DNA of 12,879 bases, taken from sequence record NZ_OX291535.1; one strand, 5' to 3'. This document shows positions 2,073 to 11,476 of this stretch, in pieces. Under the pieces are notes generated by a model that was not told the origin of the DNA, did not search any database, and worked only from the letters and a program-made list of their open reading frames with translations. Numbering within the stretch: position 1 is the stretch's first letter; every line of letters starts with the position of its first letter. The stretch is from a plasmid. A program made the translations under genes and the position numbers.

Positions 2073-2456
2073 ATGTCTGCATTTTCGATGCTGTGTGACC
2101 GGCTTCGCCATGAGGCGACGCTGGCAAAATCTACCGGGGCCGGCGACGCGCTGGCGCAGGTGCTGGAGACGGGCGGTGCTGCGCAGACGTTCGCGCCGAT
2201 CGGGGCTCCGGTTGCCTCTCCTACGGAGTCGGTTCACCGGGCGCGTGCTCAGTCCATCCAGGATGCGGCGTTCCTGACTGAGATGAAACAGGCGGGCGTG
2301 GCTCCTGCCGATCTGGTGATGCTTGACGGCGTGCTGGCCTCCTCTCGCGGACTCCCTGATGCGTCGCGTGCTCCGGCGTTCGCTGCGGTGCGTGCTCAGG
2401 TGCAGCAACAGGCGTCTCTCTCCCCTGCTGCCCGGGGTATCAATTGGGACGAGTAA
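2073..2456 (+). CDS. Hypothetical protein, 127 aa
   Basis: The ATG at 2073 abuts the upstream TAA stop. A GGAGG SD (2061-2065) sits 7 nt upstream. This looks like translational coupling with the preceding gene. Confidence 0.6.
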   Translation: MSAFSMLCDRLRHEATLAKSTGAGDALAQVLETGGAAQTFAPIGAPVASPTESVHRARAQSIQDAAFLTEMKQAGVAPADLVMLDGVLASSRGLPDASRAPAFAAVRAQVQQQASLSPAARGINWDE

Positions 2457-2461
2457 AGCCG

Positions 2462-2818
2462 ATGCCGCGCCACCTGCAGGGTAAGACGCGGATGCCGCTG
2501 GCAGGTGGTTGTTACTCTGCTGGCCACCGTCTTGCGCTGATCTCGTTGCTGCCTGTTCTGGAGGCTCGTCCTGGTGACAGGGATGATGGTGAACGATCGA
2601 AGCTGGCGCTGTATCAGGAATCGCTGATCAAGGCCGGGCAACCGCACGCGTTCGCGTTACATGAGCCGTCGCTGTATCGCTGGGGGGCGTATCTGAAGAG
2701 CCGCCGCGCCCGGTATTTACAGGAGACAGACGCAGGTGTTGCTGCGGCCTCAGACGCGCTTGATCGGCATGCTTTCGGGCGTGCTATTGGTGCGGTCCTG
2801 GGGGCTGATGATGAGTGA
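2462..2818 (+). CDS. Hypothetical protein, 118 aa (MPRHLQGKTRMPLAGG...)
   Basis: Third gene of the operon. I prefer the ATG at 2462 over the TTG at 2444 given in the track. The start is uncertain. It lies 5 nt after the upstream stop. Confidence 0.5.
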   Translation: MPRHLQGKTRMPLAGGCYSAGHRLALISLLPVLEARPGDRDDGERSKLALYQESLIKAGQPHAFALHEPSLYRWGAYLKSRRARYLQETDAGVAAASDALDRHAFGRAIGAVLGADDE

Positions 2819-2967
2819 GTTTGCCGTCTCGCGTCTGGTCATCCCTGAGGTGGTGATCCCTGACGGGGTTGTTGCTGCGCGAAAGGCCAGGGGGATCGCG
2901 CAACGTGTCGCAGCTGCTCGCCGTGCTGCTGAACGTCGTGCTGCGCCTACATGGTGCTGGGTGAGAC

Positions 2968-2992
2968 GGGGCGCGTTATGCGCCCTTTTTTT
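2968..2992 (+). terminator. Rho-independent terminator of the plus-strand operon: GGGCGC-gttat-GCGCCC followed by TTTTTTT
   Basis: GC stem 2969-2974 pairs with 2980-2985, and a 7-T run follows at 2986-2992. The TAA stop of the convergent minus-strand finO-like gene (2976-2978) lies in the hairpin loop. The complement of the T-run encodes that gene's last Lys codons. Confidence 0.6.
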
Positions 2993-3617
2993 CGCCCTTC
3001 GCCTGGCGTGCCTTGCGCCGGAATGCCTTGATCTCTGTCAGGCGGGCTTTGGCGTTTTCGGCCTCCTCCGGGGTTGCTGGTTCGGTGGGGTTGCCGTCCA
3101 GGTCGTAGCGCATGCACTGGTCGATGAGGCTCTGCTGGTACGAGCTCGTACCCGTGACAATGCCCAGGATGCGACGGACGGCTTTGCGGTCTGCCTCTGG
3201 CGGCATGTTCAGCTCTGCGCCTCGGGTCAGGATCTGCTCGATGATGCCCTTTGCCATGGGGCGACGGTCAACTCCCCGGGTCAGCAAGTCAGGCCAGTGC
3301 TCTTTCAGGAATGCTTTGGTCACCCGGTTGGCCAGCGCCTTTTTGGACTTGTTGGCGATCGCGATGTCCTGCTGGCGGCGGTCGTTCTCCTCCTGTCTGC
3401 GGATCCCCTCGGCGACCTGTTCAGGCGTCTTTTTCGGCTTTGCCGCTGTGGGCTTCTGTGCGGGCTTCTGCGGGGCTTTCGCTTTTGGCTGTACCTTCGC
3501 CTTGCTGGTAGTCCGTTCGGCTGGCTGCGGCTCAGATTTCGCGGCCTTTTCCGGCGGGACGTAGACCGTGCGGTTGCGTCGCTTGATGGTCAGGATCGGA
3601 CGGGTGGTTTCGGTCAT
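2976..3617 (-). CDS. FinO/ProQ-family RNA chaperone-like protein, 213 aa, with a Lys/Pro/Ala-rich basic N-terminal region
   Basis: MTETTRPILTIKRR... resembles the FinO N-terminus MTEQKRPVLTLKRK. ...KKALANRVTKAFLKEHWPDLLT and ...RKAVRRILGIVTGTSSYQQSLIDQCMRYDLDGNPTEP... parallel FinO regions from memory. The ATG at 3617 overlaps the upstream gene's TGA in an ATGA arrangement. The in-frame extension up to 4076 is Arg/Pro-rich junk. Confidence 0.6.
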   Translation of the reverse strand: MTETTRPILTIKRRNRTVYVPPEKAAKSEPQPAERTTSKAKVQPKAKAPQKPAQKPTAAKPKKTPEQVAEGIRRQEENDRRQQDIAIANKSKKALANRVTKAFLKEHWPDLLTRGVDRRPMAKGIIEQILTRGAELNMPPEADRKAVRRILGIVTGTSSYQQSLIDQCMRYDLDGNPTEPATPEEAENAKARLTEIKAFRRKARQAKGEKKGA

Positions 3618-4945
3618 AAATCTCTCTCTGGTCGGTTGGTCCGGATGTGGTCGGCAAGGGCGATCAGGGTGGCGGCGTCGCCGCGGTTCCGATCGATGCG
3701 CCGGATGATGTCGTTGATGTAGTCCCAGCGCCCGACGGCGGCAAGGACGGAAAGGGCGAGGCGGTTGAACCGGCTCTCTGGTACCCGGTCGAGGGTCAGG
3801 GGGATGCGCTTGCGGGGGCGTCCTGGACCGCGCCCTGTCCCTGGTCTTTTGAGCAGCTGCGGCTGCTCCCCCTGCGGCAAAATAACGGGGATCTTCGCCA
3901 GGCTGCGCGTCTCGTTCTGCGCGAACTCGGGCACCGCGATGTGCTCGTCTGTCCATGTCCTGCCTCCGGGCCTGGCTGATGCGCTGGAGTCGCAGGACGG
4001 GCAGGAGACGACGATCTCCCGTCGCGGCTTGCCCTTGACCGGTGCCTTGCTGATCACCAGGGGCGCGGCTTTGCAATCAGCGCAGACCGACGATGTCCAG
4101 ACCGCGTTGTCTGGCAGGGTGGCGTTCCGGTACTGGTGCGCGGCGTCATGCGGTGTCTGGAAGCTGACCGTCTGAAACGTGGGGGCGACGCTGAGAGGTG
4201 CCGCCCATGGCTGGCACCTGGGACAAGCAAGCTCCACCTCTCCGGCGTGCCCGTCGCCACCGTTCCAGCGCAGGGGCTCGCGGTGTTCGGGGCAGTAGTA
4301 CACGAAACCGTCGCGGCGTGTTTGCCCGACCGGGCCTGGTCGGCGATCGTGGAACCGTGCGCCCGGGTTGGCTCGCATGGCGCGGACGAGCGCCTCGCCC
4401 TGGTGGATGCCGTACCAGACCTGCCAGCCATCGCCGATGCCGATCAGGAACGGCGAGACGAACGGTGGGGTGCGGTTGACTCTCCCGCGTGCGTTGGCTC
4501 CGATGGTGGCTTCGCGTTCGCGGTTCCAGCAGGAGACGCACAGGCTCGAACCGGGCTTATTGGGGGCGATCAGGCGGTTGTCTTTCCGGCTGCAACGGGG
4601 GCAGAGCTTACGGGTGTCTGCCGGGGTGGTCAGTGGTGCGTCAGGGGGCTGTTCGGTACCGACCCAAAGCGCGAGGCCAGTGGGGCACCGGTGGCACTCG
4701 AGGTGGGGGTTTTCAATCGTGCGATCGAGGTGGCTCTGCTCATAAATCTGTCGGCATGCCTCGACCCGGAGGGAGCACCCGCCGGGGCAGGTGACGAACA
4801 AAACGCCGGGCATGATGTCGGGGAACCGCTCCGCAGCGCCTACGCACTTCAGTGCCTCGGTTGACGGCTGCGTCGCTTCTGTCGTGTCGTTATCGTCGTT
4901 CACTGCTCCCCCTGCGTCGAAATGGTCGCCAGACCTCGCCAGCAC
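3614..4945 (-). CDS. Cys-rich multi-zinc-ribbon protein, up to 443 aa; the C-terminus carries the AT-hook-like stretch GRGPGRPRKR; function unknown
   Basis: Seven CxxC/CxxxC pairs: CPGGC, CHRC, CPRC, CVSC, CPRC, CADC, CPSC. They are spaced as about three zinc ribbons. The ORF is long with the same codon bias as its neighbours. The GTG at 4945 lacks an SD, so the true start may be internal (for example the GTG at residue 15 or the ATG at residue 45). The stop overlaps the finO-like start. Confidence 0.55.
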   Translation of the reverse strand: MLARSGDHFDAGGAVNDDNDTTEATQPSTEALKCVGAAERFPDIMPGVLFVTCPGGCSLRVEACRQIYEQSHLDRTIENPHLECHRCPTGLALWVGTEQPPDAPLTTPADTRKLCPRCSRKDNRLIAPNKPGSSLCVSCWNREREATIGANARGRVNRTPPFVSPFLIGIGDGWQVWYGIHQGEALVRAMRANPGARFHDRRPGPVGQTRRDGFVYYCPEHREPLRWNGGDGHAGEVELACPRCQPWAAPLSVAPTFQTVSFQTPHDAAHQYRNATLPDNAVWTSSVCADCKAAPLVISKAPVKGKPRREIVVSCPSCDSSASARPGGRTWTDEHIAVPEFAQNETRSLAKIPVILPQGEQPQLLKRPGTGRGPGRPRKRIPLTLDRVPESRFNRLALSVLAAVGRWDYINDIIRRIDRNRGDAATLIALADHIRTNRPERDL

Positions 4946-4977
4946 TGGCTGTGCGTCTTTTTTAGTATCTCACAAAA

Positions 4978-4994
4978 AACGCCACTTTGGCGTT
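4978..4994. promoter_or_regulatory. Perfect 7-bp inverted repeat AACGCCA-ctt-TGGCGTT in the divergent promoter region. On the minus strand it is followed by a T-run.
   Basis: Seen directly. On the minus strand the hairpin is followed by TTTTTT (complement of the A-run 4974-4979), about 30 nt upstream of the zinc-ribbon gene start. It could be an operator, an attenuator, or the 3' end of a small minus-strand transcript. Confidence 0.35.
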
Positions 4995-5258
4995 AATTGT
5001 GTTAAGCTTGTCTTACTGATTCCTGACGAGCAGTTGGGAAACATGAAACCGGATCGCCCGGTGCCGCTTTCCCTCCTCCCCAACGAGGCGGGGTTGTAAA
5101 CGAGGATGCGCGCTTCGTCCTTGGCAGGTGCGAGTAAGCGAGAAGGGCTGCTGTCCTGCCGCTATGCGGTAAGTCCTCAAGGGCGGCTTTATCGATAATC
5201 GTCACTCCCGCCCCCCGATGCCCGTTAAGCTGAGGGGGGCACCTATCTGGTACTCCCA

Positions 5259-5468
5259 ATGAAAAAACGAATCTATACCGCTGACCTCGCTGCGCTGCTG
5301 AACGTGTCGCTGCGCACGCTCTCCCGCCTGAGTTCGCGGGGGATCGTTCCGACTCCGGCAGGGCGTTCCCTTCGTGGCGGGCATTACTGGCTGGCTGGGG
5401 ATCCCGTGCTCAAACGCTTTATTGCCGACCAGCGTCGTCCCGGGAGGGCTCCTTATGGCGTTCGATAA
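5259..5468 (+). CDS. AlpA/excisionase-family HTH DNA-binding regulator, 69 aa
   Basis: RIYTADLAALLNVSLRTLSRLSSRGIVPTP...GGHYW fits the AlpA pattern of a phage regulatory or Xis-like winged HTH. The 3' end overlaps the next gene by 14 nt. No obvious SD. Confidence 0.55.
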   Translation: MKKRIYTADLAALLNVSLRTLSRLSSRGIVPTPAGRSLRGGHYWLAGDPVLKRFIADQRRPGRAPYGVR

Positions 5469-6636
5469 CTCTCACCTGACTGACGCTGGCCTGTTCTGGC
5501 GTGCCGTCTCTGCGGCTGGGGCTCCGGTTGACCGCGAGGACTGGCTGCGCCTCTGTTCTGGCATCGCATGCTGGGCATCTCTCTGCGGAGAGGACGGGCT
5601 TGCTGCTATCGAGGCCTGGTCTACCCGCCACAATCGCGGATCTGCGCATCACCGGTCGCAGTACCGGCACTTCCTGAAGCTGAAAGGCGTAACCAATCCC
5701 GAGGCCATGGCGCAAGTATTCCTGCGGTTCTCAGGCGAGGTGTACTGGCGGCTCGACTCAAATCGCACGCCGCCGTCGACTGAACAGGTTGCTGCTCTTG
5801 CTGAACGGAAACGCCGATCGATCGAGGCGGTGGCCAGACGCGAAGATGCCGACCGGCGCAAGGCCGATAAGGCTGCGGCTGATGCGGTCAGGATGCTGGC
5901 GAAAGGCGACGGTAATCCGGCCTATACCCCGTACTGGCGCAATAAGACCACAATCGCCAGGCGTGGTGGCGTCAGCCTCCCGCCCCTCCCCGCTGACCTT
6001 CGTGTGGGTGGCTTGTTCCGCTCGTTCGAACCGAGGGCGTACTGGTCGCGCTGTCTGCTTGTTCCTGCCTATCGCCTGACCGATGATCGCCAGCTGGTTG
6101 GCGACGCGCTGGAGGCCATCTGCGGCGTCTGCTCTGCTGGCGGCAAAACCGGCGACAAGTTCTCCCCTGCAGGTACCCAAAAGGCGGGACGGTTCTATCC
6201 GATGCCCGGCTTTATGGACGTGCTCGATACCTCACCACATGCGCCCTACTCGCCTCTGTTCGTCTGTGAGGGGTTCGCCACGGCGGTTGCCCTGCATCAT
6301 CTGACGAAGGGCAAGGTGGCAGTCTGCGCGGCGTTCTCAATTGCCGGGTTCGGCAGCTGCGTGGCGTCGCTGCGCCGGTTCTGGCCAGATGTTGATGTGA
6401 TGCTGGTACCGGATCACGGCGAAGCGTACCGCCTGGCGCATAAAGCGGCCTATGGCGATGAGCGAGAGCCGGTCCCGACAATTCCAGGCGCGGCGGTTGT
6501 GTCGTTCGACGGCCTCGATCGCTTCACGCCCCGGGATAACCTCGACTGGTTCGACGTGCTGGTTGAGGAAGGGGAAGATCGGGCTCGTGAGCTGCTGCGC
6601 TACGCGGTTCGTCATGCCCGGCTTGAGCGGCGTTGA
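5455..6636 (+). CDS. Phage P4-alpha-like DNA primase with a TOPRIM domain, 393 aa
   Basis: The ATG at 5455 is preceded by a GGGAGGG SD. The TOPRIM-like motif PLFVCEGFATAVAL matches the EGYATG type of P4-family primases. MLVPDHGE is the second acidic motif. The N-terminal region WLRLCSGIACWASLCGEDGLAAIEAWS is PriCT-like. The first 27 codons of the track ORF are rejected. Confidence 0.55.
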   Translation: MAFDNSHLTDAGLFWRAVSAAGAPVDREDWLRLCSGIACWASLCGEDGLAAIEAWSTRHNRGSAHHRSQYRHFLKLKGVTNPEAMAQVFLRFSGEVYWRLDSNRTPPSTEQVAALAERKRRSIEAVARREDADRRKADKAAADAVRMLAKGDGNPAYTPYWRNKTTIARRGGVSLPPLPADLRVGGLFRSFEPRAYWSRCLLVPAYRLTDDRQLVGDALEAICGVCSAGGKTGDKFSPAGTQKAGRFYPMPGFMDVLDTSPHAPYSPLFVCEGFATAVALHHLTKGKVAVCAAFSIAGFGSCVASLRRFWPDVDVMLVPDHGEAYRLAHKAAYGDEREPVPTIPGAAVVSFDGLDRFTPRDNLDWFDVLVEEGEDRARELLRYAVRHARLERR

Positions 6637-7574: not shown

Positions 7575-8159
7575 TTAAGAGTTATTTAACTTCTTTATGA
7601 TCGCTGCGCCAAGCTGCCGAGTATTCATTTCATTTCCATTGCTATTTAGCAATGATATTTTTAAATCATGCGCAACATCACGTAGAAATGGCTTCACAAT
7701 AGTTACAGGCATGCCATTTCTTTGAACTGAAATACCGCCACTAAAAGTGCGACTGATTGTATAATCATTCCACTGCACACTTTCAGCCGCTCCTGGCAAG
7801 TCAGGAACCTCCTGGACAGTGAAAACCGCACGAACAATCCCTTTTTCCTTCCATCCACGCAAATACCCACTCCAAATATTTGCCCGAACTGATGATTCTT
7901 CTGAAATCGCACGAGCATTCCATACTCCAGTTTCACAGGAACCATCCCTTTTAAACATTTCGACTTTGGCCTGTTTTGATTTTAGTAACGCTTTTTTAAA
8001 ATCCGCTTCACCTTCAGGATTAAAAAAAAGTTCAGGGCGTGTGTCATGATCGATTTCAACAACATCGATCAGACGGTTTATTACCTGTTCGGGAGTTTCA
8101 AATCCCTTTGCTTGTGCAGCAAGACGGCTATATGTAGCGTCAGATATCGTAATATCCAT
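7575..8159 (-). CDS. Hypothetical protein, 194 aa, in the AT-rich cargo island. The N-terminus DITISDATYSRLAAQAKGFETPEQVINRLIDVV looks ribbon-helix-helix-like. A C-terminal domain of about 150 aa is unknown.
   Basis: Preferred start is the ATG at 8159, with a TAGAGGT SD 6 nt upstream. The track ORF starts 7 codons earlier. Codon usage is AT-rich and clearly unlike the flanking genes. Confidence 0.6.
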   Translation of the reverse strand: MDITISDATYSRLAAQAKGFETPEQVINRLIDVVEIDHDTRPELFFNPEGEADFKKALLKSKQAKVEMFKRDGSCETGVWNARAISEESSVRANIWSGYLRGWKEKGIVRAVFTVQEVPDLPGAAESVQWNDYTISRTFSGGISVQRNGMPVTIVKPFLRDVAHDLKISLLNSNGNEMNTRQLGAAIIKKLNNS

Positions 8160-8198
8160 CAAAGTACCTCTATAGATCAAAAATTAATCATAAAATTA

Positions 8199-8227
8199 AT
8201 CATAATTGATAAATTTAATGATTTCAA
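8199..8227 (-). promoter_or_regulatory. Sigma70-like promoter for the island gene 7575..8159: -35 TTGAAA (8227-8222), 17-bp spacer, -10 TATGAT (8204-8199)
   Basis: Read from the complement. The -10 lies in a tandem 12-bp repeat AAATTAATCATA x2 (8181-8204). The repeat gives a second TATGAT 12 bp downstream. The start codon is about 40 nt further on. Confidence 0.4.
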
Positions 8228-8605
8228 GATCTATAATTACCTGATATCGCAATATGGTTAACCGCCTCTAAAGAGCTATAAAAACCTGTAAACCCGCTCC
8301 TCGTGCCGCTTGGTTATAAACAAACCAGTTGAATCTACGTCAACAATAGCCTACTATTGTTGTACTGCAAGAGCATTCGCAGGGGGTATTAACCAGTAAT
8401 TAACCCTTTGCGCTGGGCAGTCAGGAGGCTGGTCTCCTGTTGGGAAGTTATGTTGCGGCTTCCTAGTAATAACAGTGAATTTGATAGACAGCAGAAAACC
8501 GCCGATGCTGCTAGATCCGAAAGGAACCAATGAAGGGAAATATTTAGGCGTTATGGTTCATTCTCATTAAATTGAGGAGAATTGCTTAAATGGGCGTCCT
8601 TCCTA

Positions 8606-9097
8606 TCACCCTCGCTGTATAGCTTTACATTTGGCCTCCGTTGCATGGTATGCAGTCACGGGGGCCAAATTATTTTCAGAGACATCAACTATCGCCATTG
8701 CGAAAAAGCCAGCCCCAGCAACGTTAATGCGACGAACAGCATTGAGCACAATAGTCTGCTCCGAGTAATCTCTGTTAACGTACACATTGCTCTGCACTGA
8801 GAATGCAGTTGCCAAAATCTCCGCACACTCTTGCCAACTTAGCTTATCCTTCGAGTTACGAGCAGATAGCACATGCCTAAACATTGCCCAAGTGATCGGT
8901 ATTGCTGGTGATGCAGGTATGTCCCAGCCGTTTCTCTGACAAACAACTTTCATTTGATTGAACTGCTTCTTAGTCATCAGATAGGTAAAACAAGGCGTCT
9001 CCCAAACTTCCTGAGGGAGACCTTTATCATCCATTTCTTCAGCTTGCTGTGTAAAAGCATAGAAAGCGTCACGGATAGCATCATCACCGATAGCCAC
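8606..9097 (-). CDS. Hypothetical protein, 163 aa, in the AT-rich cargo island
   Basis: GTG start at 9097 with an AAGGA SD 6 nt upstream. AT-rich codon usage. No recognisable motifs. Confidence 0.55.
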   Translation of the reverse strand: MAIGDDAIRDAFYAFTQQAEEMDDKGLPQEVWETPCFTYLMTKKQFNQMKVVCQRNGWDIPASPAIPITWAMFRHVLSARNSKDKLSWQECAEILATAFSVQSNVYVNRDYSEQTIVLNAVRRINVAGAGFFAMAIVDVSENNLAPVTAYHATEAKCKAIQRG

Positions 9098-9161
9098 TTC
9101 TTTTCCTTGTAAAATTTTTATGTTCGAATTTTATCATATTTAGCTATGTCACTTAGGACTG

Positions 9162-9653
9162 CTAATTCAGTAGCCCACTTTCCCGCAACTTATGGCGATA
9201 GTCCCGGACACGGCTGGTGTTCCACTCCTGTCCCGTCGCTGTCCGGTGCCCTGCTGCGTTCAGTGCCGACGCGATGGCGGGCAGAGTCGCGTTCTCTGCG
9301 GTCATGCTGACAATGAGCTGGTCAGCCTCATCACTGACGGCCTGGAAGCGCGGATCGGCTCCCCGGGGGACTATCTGTCTTGCAGGTTGTTGTGCGCTTT
9401 GTGGTGCTGTTTGTTGTGCGGTTTGTCGTGCAGGTTTACCGCCGACGGACAGCGCCCTGACTTCAGCCCTCAGCGCTTCGATGGCAGCTAAAAGTTTGGT
9501 GTCCATCCCTTCCGGCTTCGTGCCAAGTCCGGCGTTCAGCGCCTCTATGACAGCATCCGTGCGGGTTGCTCCGGTTCGTGCTGCGTTCTGCTCGATGCGT
9601 TCGATCAGGCTAACGGGTAGGCGAACGGTCAGGGTTTTGGTTTTCTCTCTCAT
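9162..9653 (-). CDS. DNA-binding regulator, 164 aa. N-terminal ribbon-helix-helix (CopG/Arc-like). Gln/Ala-rich repeat linker. C-terminal recombinase-type HTH (LNAAGHRTATGQEWNTSRVRDY).
   Basis: The RHH signature is KTLTVRLPVSLIERIEQNAARTGATRTDAVIEAL. I prefer the ATG at 9653, with a GGAGAG SD 8 nt upstream. The track's 50-codon N-terminal extension is low-complexity translation of the upstream DNA repeats. The C-terminal G.W..S.V motif resembles the recombinase-domain HTH of large serine recombinases. Confidence 0.55.
   Translation of the reverse strand: MREKTKTLTVRLPVSLIERIEQNAARTGATRTDAVIEALNAGLGTKPEGMDTKLLAAIEALRAEVRALSVGGKPARQTAQQTAPQSAQQPARQIVPRGADPRFQAVSDEADQLIVSMTAENATLPAIASALNAAGHRTATGQEWNTSRVRDYRHKLRESGLLN
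9390..9430. repeat. Four phased copies (11-12 bp period) of GT(T/C/G)GTGC inside the RHH gene. They encode its QTAQQTAPQSAQQPARQ linker.
   Basis: GTTGTGC at 9390, GTGGTGC at 9401, GTTGTGC at 9413 and GTCGTGC at 9424, read directly. Confidence 0.6.
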
Positions 9654-10180: not shown

Positions 10181-11476
10181 GTGTCACAAATTGATGAAAA
10201 TTCCGGCACTGCTGCCGACAACGTAACGCCGATCGCCGCTGCCAAGGTGGGACGCCCGTCTCTACAAAAAAAATACCCGACTACCGCGTTTCCCGTGGAG
10301 CTGGAGATCAACTACCGGAAGGGGCGCTACTCGTCCTCTCTTGAGAACGTTGTCGCCGCTATGCGCTGCCATTCCGTCACCGGCATCCAGCTCGCTTTCG
10401 ATGAGTTCTTTGCGGAGGAGGGGGCGTTCGTGAACGGGCAATGGTACCCGCTGTCCGACAACCTAGTTACCGAGCTGCGTCTGCGCCTCGCTGCTGCCGA
10501 CTTCGAGAAGGTGACCAAGGACAATGCCCGCGACGCCATGTTCTACGTCTGCGATGAGAACAAATTCGACAGCGCCCAGCGTTGGCTGACGGCTCAGGAA
10601 TGGGACGGCAAACCTCGCGTCAGTTACTTCTTCGAGCGGTGCTTCAAATGCCAAGGGGATCCCGAGTACCTGGCGGCGGTCAGCCTCTACACCTGGACGG
10701 CGCTTGCCGGGCGCGTAATGAATCCCGGAATCAAGGCCGACATGGTTCCGCTGCTGTACGGGCGACAGGGTGCCCGCAAATCGACGGGCGTTCGCCTTAT
10801 GTCGCCATTCCCTGACTCCTACTCCAGCTTCAACCTGAACGACAAGGACGACTCCCTAGTGCGCCGTATGCGTGGGTGCCTGATTGGCGAGCTGGAGGAG
10901 CTGCGCGGCCTCCACGGGCGCGACTCCGAATCGGTGAAAGCGTTCTTCTCCGCTGCCCACGACGAGTGGGTGCCGAAATTTAAAGAGTTCAAGGTGCGAA
11001 ACCCGCGCCGCGTGGTGTTCATCGGTACCACGAACAACAAGCAGATCCTCAATGACTCGACGGGGAACCGCCGCTATTTGCCCATGAATTCCGGGGACGT
11101 GGACTGCGCGGCCATCGAGAAAAACCGCTCGCAGCTGTGGGCTGAAGCGCTCCACCTGTTCAATGAGAATGGGGTGATGTGGGAGGCCGCTGAAACGCTG
11201 GCGCGTAAGGTGCATGACGAGTTCCGCGTCGAGGATCCGTGGGAAGACGAGATCGCCGAGCTGCTCAAGCTGGACGTTGACGACTGCGACCCGACTGCTT
11301 TCGTGCCGACGAAGGCCTTGTTCTCTCAGGTAGGGCTCATGATTGGCCATACCAGCAACAAGCAGCATCAGCGCATGGCGGCTATCATGTCCCGATTGGG
11401 CTATGAGGTTGGCAGGAAGCGCATAAACGGTGCGTTAGTTCGTGGCTACTTCCGTCGAACGCAAGCTGTCGTGTAA
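10181..11476 (+). CDS. VirE / D5-family (superfamily-3-like) P-loop NTPase helicase, Rep-like replication initiator of the P4-alpha C-terminal or PICI Rep type; 431 aa
   Basis: GTG start with an AAGGAG SD 8 nt upstream. The Walker-A-like motif is LLYGRQGARKST. Downstream reads VVFIGTTNN...GNRRYLPM, which is VirE-family-like. An iteron/AT-rich origin follows immediately 3' of it, as in pri-rep-ori modules of phage satellites. Confidence 0.6.
   Translation: MSQIDENSGTAADNVTPIAAAKVGRPSLQKKYPTTAFPVELEINYRKGRYSSSLENVVAAMRCHSVTGIQLAFDEFFAEEGAFVNGQWYPLSDNLVTELRLRLAAADFEKVTKDNARDAMFYVCDENKFDSAQRWLTAQEWDGKPRVSYFFERCFKCQGDPEYLAAVSLYTWTALAGRVMNPGIKADMVPLLYGRQGARKSTGVRLMSPFPDSYSSFNLNDKDDSLVRRMRGCLIGELEELRGLHGRDSESVKAFFSAAHDEWVPKFKEFKVRNPRRVVFIGTTNNKQILNDSTGNRRYLPMNSGDVDCAAIEKNRSQLWAEALHLFNENGVMWEAAETLARKVHDEFRVEDPWEDEIAELLKLDVDDCDPTAFVPTKALFSQVGLMIGHTSNKQHQRMAAIMSRLGYEVGRKRINGALVRGYFRRTQAVV

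Follow-up and report, generated by a model that had tools for sequence, protein, structure and literature searches.

An apparently coupled pair of zinc-ribbon and finO-like genes in one lineage of small cryptic plasmids from Enterobacteriaceae

FinO-domain proteins form a small set of RNA chaperones, whose plasmid-borne members control conjugation or copy number. They bind a terminator hairpin together with its 3′-OH tail (PMC9674577), and the plasmid relatives act on plasmid RNAs, as described for PcnR of IncI2 plasmids (PMC8053102) and for FopA of the IncI1 plasmid pCol1B9 and FinO (PMC9977716); both PcnR and FopA repress replication via a rep leader or antisense RNA. Here, we analyzed a plasmid-derived stretch of 12,879 bp (sequence record NZ_OX291535.1; hereafter, the window), in which a finO-like gene encoding 213 amino acids (aa; 2976–3617, minus strand) follows a gene for a cysteine-rich, multi-zinc-ribbon protein (3614–4903, minus strand). 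A preliminary description of this DNA had read the pair as a translationally coupled operon whose FinO-like product might bind candidate RNA 3′ ends nearby. Our explanation as a whole, to which we give even chances, is that the pair (2976–4903) is a coupled accessory operon that arose by module shuffling, that the FinO-like protein has a terminator as its ligand and is dispensable, and that the palindrome upstream of the pair is an operator.

The FinO-like protein and its coupling to the zinc-ribbon gene

The FinO-like protein is, by profile and alignment, a genuine member of the FinO/ProQ family. Residues 102–205 (3003–3314, minus strand) matched Pfam PF04352 (ProQ/FinO; E = 4.8e-15; 55.9 bits against a gathering score of 27) over profile positions 9–108 of 109, and all close homologs carry precomputed PF04352 assignments. 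Phmmer against PDB sequences retrieved four solved FinO-domain proteins, namely the N-terminal domain of ProQ (5nb9, 5.9e-7), RocC (7rgt, 7rgu, and 7rgs), F-plasmid FinO (1dvo, 4.9e-6), and Lpp1663 (6s10), and the family assignment of the preliminary description was thereby upheld. The pocket that receives the 3′ nucleotide is formed by Gly52, Tyr87, and Arg97 in RocC and includes Tyr70 and Arg80 in ProQ (PMC9674577). G124, Y160, and R170 of the plasmid protein align with these positions, both in the phmmer alignments with ProQ and RocC and in a MAFFT alignment with F FinO and ProQ, which indicates that the Gly/Tyr/Arg 3′-end pocket is intact. A word-indexed search of a large protein collection with this protein returned only relatives that were at least 69% identical, and no close relatives were found in IMG/VR.

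Residues 1–95 (3333–3617, minus strand) form a basic extension, 25% of which is Lys or Arg. The preliminary description had singled this region out as histone-like, but it belongs to the ordinary FinO layout: the NCBIfam FinO model (PRK13754) aligned along the whole protein (residues 1–206 with positions 1–179 of 186). We consider the protein to have a FinO-like architecture while being, as far as models and genomic context indicate, neither FinO proper nor ProQ. The FinO model scored 51 bits against a cutoff of 136, and neither a FinP-like RNA nor an F-like transfer region was found; the ProQ equivalog model (PRK04950) scored 25.1 bits against a cutoff of 127, with positions 5–121 of 205 aligned and no full-length match.

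The closest described systems resemble this locus in part. Like F FinO (FinOP), the protein is plasmid-encoded, about 190–210 aa long, and built from a basic N-terminal extension followed by the FinO domain, and the curated model aligns with it end to end; BLASTP gave 35% identity over 94 aa of the domain, with an approximate F sequence for comparison. The two proteins presumably also begin alike (MTE..RP.LT.KR), a resemblance that, given this approximate sequence, serves as a lead only. Unlike F finO, the plasmid gene lies outside a tra region on a plasmid that is not conjugative, has no accompanying FinP-like or other Rfam RNA that we could find, and is coupled to a zinc-ribbon gene. PcnR and FopA, likened here by description, are the likeliest functional analogs, with the FinO-like protein likewise a plasmid-borne FinO-domain accessory regulator that would not be essential. 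In contrast to those systems, no rep leader or antisense RNA was identified on the window plasmid; its replicon is of the primase/helicase type, and relatives have exchanged the helicase module but retained finO. ProQ of Escherichia coli and Salmonella and RocC of Legionella share the domain with its conserved Gly/Tyr/Arg pocket, whereas the plasmid protein lacks the ProQ linker and the Tudor-like C-terminal domain, and its gene is plasmid-borne.

The stop codon of the zinc-ribbon gene and the start codon of finO overlap in an ATGA (3614–3617, minus strand) preceded by the purine-rich GAGAGAGA. This junction, read directly from the window, was conserved in all 6 lineages examined and in every annotated relative checked, and it was kept in the FinO-truncated allele as well. 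As the preliminary description had proposed, the overlap indicates translational coupling of the two genes. In addition, the junction lies in an island of nucleotide conservation (3450–3770) in which synonymous sites are almost invariant. The island covers the C-terminal helical domain of the zinc-ribbon protein and the first ~55 finO codons, and it is 92–100% identical in all lineages, including the divergent allele L001, whose flanks are only 57–77% identical; it is also retained in FinO-deleted alleles. Either a recombination patch or a cis element could account for it.

Distribution of the gene pair and the zinc-ribbon family

We investigated whether the pairing is conserved beyond the window. 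With tblastn against PLSDB, the FinO-like protein was found in 23 records and the zinc-ribbon protein in 39, and finO abutted the zinc-ribbon gene in all 16 of the 23 records in which a single linear stretch contained both genes. However, 15 of the 39 zinc-ribbon records, mostly plasmids of 13–15 kb with a few larger records, carried sister versions that were 33–37% identical and had no FinO match. Synteny of this sister lineage is otherwise kept, comprising the resolvase, the small-gene operon, and the divergent Toprim-like gene, the last also present in the metagenomic contig L015. The gene that follows its zinc-ribbon gene encodes a protein of ~900 aa in three loci (L014, L015, and L021, where it is annotated as a lytic transglycosylase), and no same-strand gene follows in L020. 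Farther afield, distant members of the zinc-ribbon family repeatedly adjoin open reading frames (ORFs) of 860–1040 aa, with SLT domains wherever Pfam data exist. The loci with family homologs considered here were L003, L014, L015, L018, L021, and L024–L074, and the family is widespread in proteobacterial islands, prophages, and IMG/VR contigs.

Two custom FinO hidden Markov models, one of them built from the window protein, P0172, F FinO, and the ProQ N-terminal domain, detected a FinO ORF within 6 kb of none of 122 zinc-ribbon family loci (51 genomic and 71 viral). Furthermore, FinO was absent from the 25 most frequent Pfam families (of 44 matched) among the 136 nearest-neighbor ORFs of such loci. 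The co-occurrence proposed in the preliminary description was thus borne out in one respect, the invariable adjacency of the two genes where finO occurs, but not in the other: sister plasmids, genomes, and phages carry the zinc-ribbon gene without finO, and the two genes are not co-conserved outside one plasmid lineage. The statement that no such pairing had been described agrees with the literature, in which we found no description of a FinO protein paired with a multi-zinc-ribbon protein.

The FinO domain has also been lost within the lineage. Three plasmids (OW969628, OW969668, and CP033380), which represent two different backbones, keep only FinO codons 1–38, followed by unrelated sequence, and for this reason the domain is, on these alleles, dispensable for plasmid maintenance. 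In all three (CP033380 and OW969628 being loci L013 and L022), the replacement sequence after codon 38 encodes a 94-aa protein without a family match, and we rejected the idea that the replacement gene encodes another RNA-binding protein on that ground. The replacement occurs on both of the intergenic haplotypes described below, which indicates that it has spread by recombination.

Taken by its distribution, the pairing is confined to one plasmid lineage and is evolutionarily shallow. The simplest reading is that finO replaced an SLT-like gene in this lineage: it fills the slot that a gene for a ~900-aa, lytic-transglycosylase-like protein occupies in most of the sister plasmids examined, which argues for module shuffling and against an ancient functional couple. 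A slim chance remains for the opposite view, namely that the two proteins form a functional nucleic-acid-binding module in which the C-terminal helical domain of the zinc-ribbon protein docks on the N-terminal extension of FinO. The ATGA coupling is conserved in all relatives, conservation within the operon peaks, for protein and synonymous sites alike, over the C-terminal domain plus the first ~55 FinO codons, and FinO was never found without the zinc-ribbon gene. Yet the same C-terminal domain occurs in sister proteins that have the ~900-aa protein next to them instead of FinO, FinO-domain deletions are viable, and no co-occurrence was seen at the 122 other loci; moreover, the conservation of the junction may reflect a recombination patch and is judged on essentially one divergent lineage, L001.

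The zinc-ribbon protein itself is probably somewhat shorter than first proposed. The minus-strand ORF at 3614–4945 does encode 443 aa from the first in-frame GTG (4945), as the preliminary description stated, but all homologs begin with MNDDND, the equivalent of which in the window is the GTG at 4903, and a ribosome-binding site, GGGGGAG, lies upstream of this codon (4907–4913). A protein of 429 aa (3614–4903) is therefore likelier, and the reading from 4945 probably starts too early. The protein consists of a Cys-rich N-terminal core, two further Cys4/Cys3His modules, a basic disordered linker, and a C-terminal 3-helix domain (3620–3772, minus strand; AlphaFold2 model). In the 429-aa numbering, we found seven CxxC/CxxH knuckles (C70xxC73, C101xxC104, C122xxC125, C204xxH207, C227xxC230, C274xxC277, and C301xxC304) and two single cysteines (C39 and C50), a pattern that can be accounted for by about three classical CxxC...CxxC sites and one of atypical form and that agrees with the roughly three zinc ribbons counted before. 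In an 80-member family alignment, C70, C73, C101, C104, and C122 are invariant, and C39, C50, and C125 are at least 90% conserved. All eight of these core cysteines are invariant in an 11-member set; the other knuckles show no variation across the plasmid lineage and P0015, the outlier closest to it. The AT-hook-like tail noted previously is present as GRGPGRPRKR (residues 357–366; 3806–3835, minus strand), but it lies within the low-confidence, probably disordered basic linker, and 3 of the 8 aligned full-length homologs either lack it or have a changed version (the ninth homolog in the alignment, P0015, lacks the C-terminal third).

This protein belongs, on profile evidence, to a large uncharacterized Cys-rich family of phages and mobile genetic elements. 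A word-indexed search retrieved close plasmid homologs and a single 302-aa protein of 32% identity, whereas an exhaustive profile search yielded 534 representative clusters at E ≤ 1e-3, mostly of 170–300 aa, and most of these clusters cover only the N-terminal ~150–280 residues. Pattern scans located 51 further genomic loci in diverse Proteobacteria (retrieved from an 11-sequence alignment), one more plasmid copy (L023), and 71 IMG/VR viral contigs. The genes around the family loci are phage-like (integrase, RecT, ANT, KilA-N, HNH, Dam, and VapE), and a few members carry a fused N-terminal winged-helix-like region. The N-terminal ~150–180 residues of the plasmid protein bear the family motif, CVSC[WY]NRxRE...G.NA[KR]G. 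In contrast to typical members of 170–300 aa, which usually neighbor the ~900-aa SLT-like protein, the plasmid version adds two zinc modules, the AT-hook-like linker, and the C-terminal helical domain, and has FinO as its neighbor. We obtained no match to the plasmid protein in Pfam, PHROGs, NCBIfam, or PADLOC, and the family profile gave nothing significant against PDB sequences. An AlphaFold2 model made with 80 diverse sequences reached a predicted local distance difference test score (pLDDT) of 81 and is the one used here; a model from 10 close sequences was unusable (pLDDT 44). The model had no significant structural neighbor. The protein is probably a nucleic-acid-binding regulator or a replication accessory protein.

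Candidate RNA ligands and a putative divergent promoter region

At its 3′ end, finO overlaps what is, by scan and fold, a good intrinsic terminator of the convergent plus-strand operon (1416 to about 2960). This terminator (2968–2993, plus strand) reads GGGGCGCG-TTA-TGCGCCCT followed by T7; its hairpin (2968–2986) has an 8-bp stem with 6 GC and U7 directly 3′, and the 3′ half of the hairpin and the T-tract encode the last FinO codons (KKGA, with the stop TAA at 2976–2978). The preliminary description had noted a terminator overlapping the finO stop, and we found that it closes the convergent operon and is conserved in every relative that carries FinO, even in the L001 allele of 70% identity. 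Read on the minus strand, the hairpin has no U-tract behind it. The finO mRNA therefore probably reads into or past it, which would make the convergent mRNAs complementary at their 3′ ends. Terminator-like sites numbered 7 in 2400–5600 against 3.5 ± 2.4 in shuffles, an excess that is not significant; the strongest such hairpins on the plasmid are those at 2968, 4978–4994, and 11492. As the only one of these three tied to finO, the 2968–2993 terminator is the best cis candidate for a FinO ligand, which is a speculative assignment. Just 5′ of the terminator, the window has a private 40-bp deletion (2962/2963) between two GGTGAGACGGG direct repeats, where relatives carry an extra hairpin-forming segment. 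The deletion takes out the stop codon of a 62-aa ORF annotated in relatives, and the frame consequently runs to 3722 in the window.

The region upstream of the pair contains the other hairpin of interest, an imperfect palindrome (4972–5000) with the core AACGCCA-N3-TGGCGTT (4978–4994) and the outer arms ACAATT and TTTTGT. On the minus strand, the scan gave a hairpin at 4994–4978 followed by TTTTTTG. The 16 family plasmids (the window and 15 relatives) fall into two intergenic haplotypes: type A, in the window and 10 relatives, reads TTAACGCCAAAGTGGCGTTTTTTGTGAGATACTAAAAAAG, and type B, in 5 relatives, 3 of which have an intact FinO, reads TTAACGCCATTTTGGCGCTAA(T/C)TATGCGATAATAAAAAAC. The core arms are invariant, the loop is AAG or TTT, and the T-run is replaced by CTAATTATG or CTAACTATG throughout type B (5 of the 16 plasmids). 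The T-run of type A base-pairs with the left arm, ACAATT, and thereby lengthens the palindrome to ~13-bp arms; type B shows compensatory changes in the outer arms (C-G to T-A, and A-T via G.T to G-C). No such palindrome lies upstream of the zinc-ribbon gene in the sister lineage. The exact core occurs once in the window; a dispersed operator with second copies of the palindrome was considered and rejected, as only chance-level matches with 1 mismatch were found.

Immediately 3′ of the hairpin on the minus strand, and 60 nt upstream of the start of the zinc-ribbon gene, lies a putative extended −10 element of the operon (4964–4972, minus strand), assigned by eye as TGaGATACT (TGcGATAAT in the other haplotype). 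The consensus TGnGATA(C/A)T is conserved in both haplotypes, and the sister-lineage contig L015 has TATAAT at the equivalent place. From this element, we predict a transcription start site near 4957 and a 5′ untranslated region of about 54 nt. A mirror-image TGtTAAGCT is found on the plus strand at the other side of the palindrome. The T-run is the right arm of the palindrome, is lost in type B, and adjoins a conserved extended −10, and these features together suggest that the palindrome is more likely a protein-binding operator between divergent promoters than the terminator of a small RNA (sRNA). Thus, the perfect hairpin with a T-run that the preliminary description reported is present in the window, but the T-run is lost in 5 of the 15 relatives, including 3 with an intact FinO, and the palindrome abuts a putative promoter element. 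Farther into the leader of the divergent operon, which encodes a helix-turn-helix (HTH) protein and a Toprim-like protein, a perfect 10-bp palindrome, TTATCGATAA (5189–5198), overlaps a plus-strand GATAAT box, and a G/C hairpin, GCCCCCC...GGGGGGC (5210–5240), lies 18 nt upstream of the HTH start; the divergent L001 allele retains the stem of this hairpin but has another loop. Both are possible regulatory sites.

We regard as decidedly unlikely, although not without points in its favor, a minus-strand sRNA that would start within 4995–5258, end at the 4994–4978 hairpin and U-run, and be antisense to the HTH/Toprim leader, with FinO speeding the pairing in a FinP/Inc/PcnR-style control of replication. 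The hairpin has a 7-bp stem (−12.3 kcal/mol with flanks, z-score −3.6), carries a U6 tail in the window and in 10 of the 15 relatives sampled, and lies in the 355-bp divergent region beside the Toprim-like operon, where its potential is kept by compensatory changes; the palindrome is also present in every FinO-lineage plasmid examined and absent upstream of the sister zinc-ribbon gene. However, the U-run is missing (CUAAUUAUG) from the type B plasmids, and it doubles as the right arm of the longer palindrome. A single-stranded 3′ tail is required for recognition by FinO domains (PMC9674577), and a hairpin that lacks its U-run in type B therefore cannot be a conserved FinO ligand. Furthermore, no plausible upstream minus-strand −10 was seen by eye in the conserved block or found by scan, the putative RNA body (about 5050–5130) is the least conserved part of the intergenic region, the region folds no better than shuffles, and the hairpin sits directly upstream of the conserved −10 of the zinc-ribbon operon.

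The same compensatory changes, which keep the ~13-bp arms, would suit a replication element that the DNA itself forms as a hairpin or cruciform, such as a single-strand initiation site recognized by the adjacent Toprim-like primase. The palindrome adjoins the Toprim-like operon, for which there are a weak Toprim_3 match of the sister ortholog and a weak DnaG-like match, and its near-symmetry would give similar hairpins on both strands. This would be a very improbable role, in our estimation: neither iterons nor an AT-rich unwinding element was identified, the sister lineage with the same Toprim gene has no palindrome, and the overlap with −10-like boxes on both sides suits an operator.

In the mechanism that we favor, the zinc-ribbon–finO operon would be transcribed from the extended −10 at 4964–4972, under a palindromic operator that contains the 4978–4994 hairpin within the divergent promoter region, and FinO would be made by termination–reinitiation at the ATGA. 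From what is known of the family (PMC9674577, PMC9977716, PMC8053102), the FinO-like protein would clamp an intrinsic-terminator hairpin and its 3′ oligo-U tail and promote or protect RNA pairing. The likeliest cis ligand would be the plus-operon terminator that overlaps the last finO codons, and FinO may, speculatively, stabilize the plus-operon mRNA and/or feed back on its own mRNA. A tentative ranking of ligands, no less speculative, would start with the plus-operon 3′ end, continue with targets in trans on co-resident plasmids, and finish with the minus-strand RNA of the preliminary description. ProQ-type proteins reportedly bind mRNA 3′ terminators (Holmqvist et al. 2018 is said to describe this), which would be a precedent for a plus-operon ligand.

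Several observations weigh against this mechanism. Rfam searches found no RNA family in the window (E ≤ 1) or in four relatives (E ≤ 0.1), and neither the junction island, which holds no convincing iterons or notable repeats, nor the intergenic region on both strands folds better than shuffles. A scan of 2400–5600 with the sigma-70 consensus returned no promoter, and the promoter calls above were made by eye. The conservation of the 2968–2993 terminator with finO is partly trivial, because the terminator is located inside the last finO codons. The compensatory outer-arm changes, with their G.T intermediate, also fit a hairpin of RNA or single-stranded DNA, and the tight coupling and the conserved junction island could mean that the zinc-ribbon and FinO proteins have a real functional link. 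In addition, all characterized plasmid FinO relatives act at 5′ leaders via cis-antisense RNAs, not at convergent 3′ ends (PMC9977716, PMC8053102), a precedent that favors the minus-strand sRNA.

The failure to find a convincing cis RNA partner, by Rfam or by folding, also bears on an alternative that we hold to be unlikely but worth keeping in view, namely that the main targets of the FinO-like protein lie in trans, being antisense or small RNAs with terminator ends that come from co-resident plasmids (FinP, Inc/RNAI-type, or RepX-type) or from the host, so that the small plasmid modulates its neighbors or the host rather than itself. The plasmid can do without FinO, finO persists where the replication/helicase module has been exchanged, which suggests that finO is not tied to one replicon, and the closest curated model is FinO itself. 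Furthermore, the FinO of pSLT is reported to control the RepX sRNA of a cohabiting plasmid (PMC8136791). Against this stand the low similarity of the domain to F FinO (35%, with the approximate F sequence), a score far below the FinO model cutoff, and the purely negative character of the argument; that the plasmid itself has no FinP-like or other Rfam RNA is neutral in this respect. Least probable of all, in our view, is a joint riboregulatory module of the zinc-ribbon and FinO proteins that would control the divergent Toprim/helicase replication operon via an antisense or leader RNA at the palindrome, with the 3450–3770 island as part of the cis machinery. If true, it would amount to a FinO-family copy-number circuit in a primase–helicase replicon with an obligatory zinc-ribbon cofactor.

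The plasmid family and its significance

The window is a complete small cryptic circular plasmid of Enterobacteriaceae and is non-mobilizable. Its last 300 and first 300 bases, when joined, were 100% contiguous in Citrobacter freundii plasmid P3 (NZ_OW969907), which matched the window with 99% coverage and 95.7% identity. In PLSDB, 50 records from Escherichia, Citrobacter, Enterobacter, Klebsiella, and others matched the window, 46 of which were typed as non-mobilizable; the listed matches were mostly 10–14 kb in size. Across 5,426 complete E. coli genomes, the window matched 30 places, all of them on plasmids and none on a chromosome. The phage collection searched with the window gave no match, no tra genes were found on the plasmid, and its recombinase content is limited to a serine resolvase, with no integrase or capsid-related match in Pfam, PHROGs, or NCBIfam scans of the window proteins. 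The preliminary description had placed the pair in a primase/helicase satellite-like element. This placement was not borne out: the window closes on itself, its matches are plasmid-only, and no phage match was obtained, all of which point to a small cryptic plasmid rather than a satellite. A P4-like identity was likewise rejected in view of the circularity, the plasmid-only matches, and the lack of an integrase or a phage-collection match.

The backbone common to the relatives consists of the serine resolvase gene; the plus-strand operon (1416 to about 2960), with three genes annotated without function and a fourth small ORF (~62 aa) annotated in relatives; the convergent zinc-ribbon–finO pair; the divergent operon of the HTH (69 aa) and Toprim-like (393 aa) genes; and a variable region followed by a swappable helicase module. 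This module is exchanged among otherwise syntenic plasmids, being of the VapE-domain type in the window, a DUF927 plus Rop-family type in plasmids like pSYM9, and a 519-aa protein without a family in others (compared stretches: window, 10181–11476; L002, 10675–12647; L012, 5787–7346), and the Toprim-like gene and the zinc-ribbon(–finO) operon remain constant across the swaps. The Toprim assignment comes from a sister ortholog that weakly matches Toprim_3 and from a further weak DnaG-like match; the Toprim-like and plus-operon proteins themselves matched nothing in Pfam, PHROGs, NCBIfam, or PADLOC, and the Toprim-like protein gave nothing significant against PDB sequences.

A low-GC segment (7600–9200; 38–46% versus ~60% elsewhere) looks like acquired cargo. 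It holds two minus-strand genes encoding 201 and 163 aa, of which the former has a sub-threshold match to DUF7557 (17.5 bits against a cutoff of 25) as its sole Pfam match, and PADLOC returned no match in the segment. Of the three sigma-70 consensus matches on the plasmid, two fall within it (8227–8199 and 9055–9026). The additional plasmid copy mentioned above, L023 (CAJKQY010000058.1), is a 12.4-kb contig of the same plasmid with a 96% identical zinc-ribbon protein in a metagenome-assembled genome labeled ‘uncultured Collinsella sp.’, a label that is almost certainly a binning artifact.

The finO-like gene was already annotated automatically in RefSeq as a ‘ProQ/FINO family protein’; what is new is an uncharacterized FinO-family clade on a poorly studied plasmid family and its unusual gene partner. 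Given this annotation, the lineage-specific pairing, and the lack of a supported regulatory RNA, we consider the significance to be modest. Our analysis also flags a large zinc-ribbon family of phages and mobile genetic elements that has neither annotation nor structural relatives. The carriers of the FinO clade are widespread, untyped, cryptic plasmids of ~11–13 kb in E. coli, Citrobacter, and Enterobacter from clinical and wastewater isolates, and they have neither conjugation genes nor an obvious antisense RNA. Their natural FinO-minus alleles could be used as ready-made controls, and each further FinO clade may help to show how the domain selects its RNAs.

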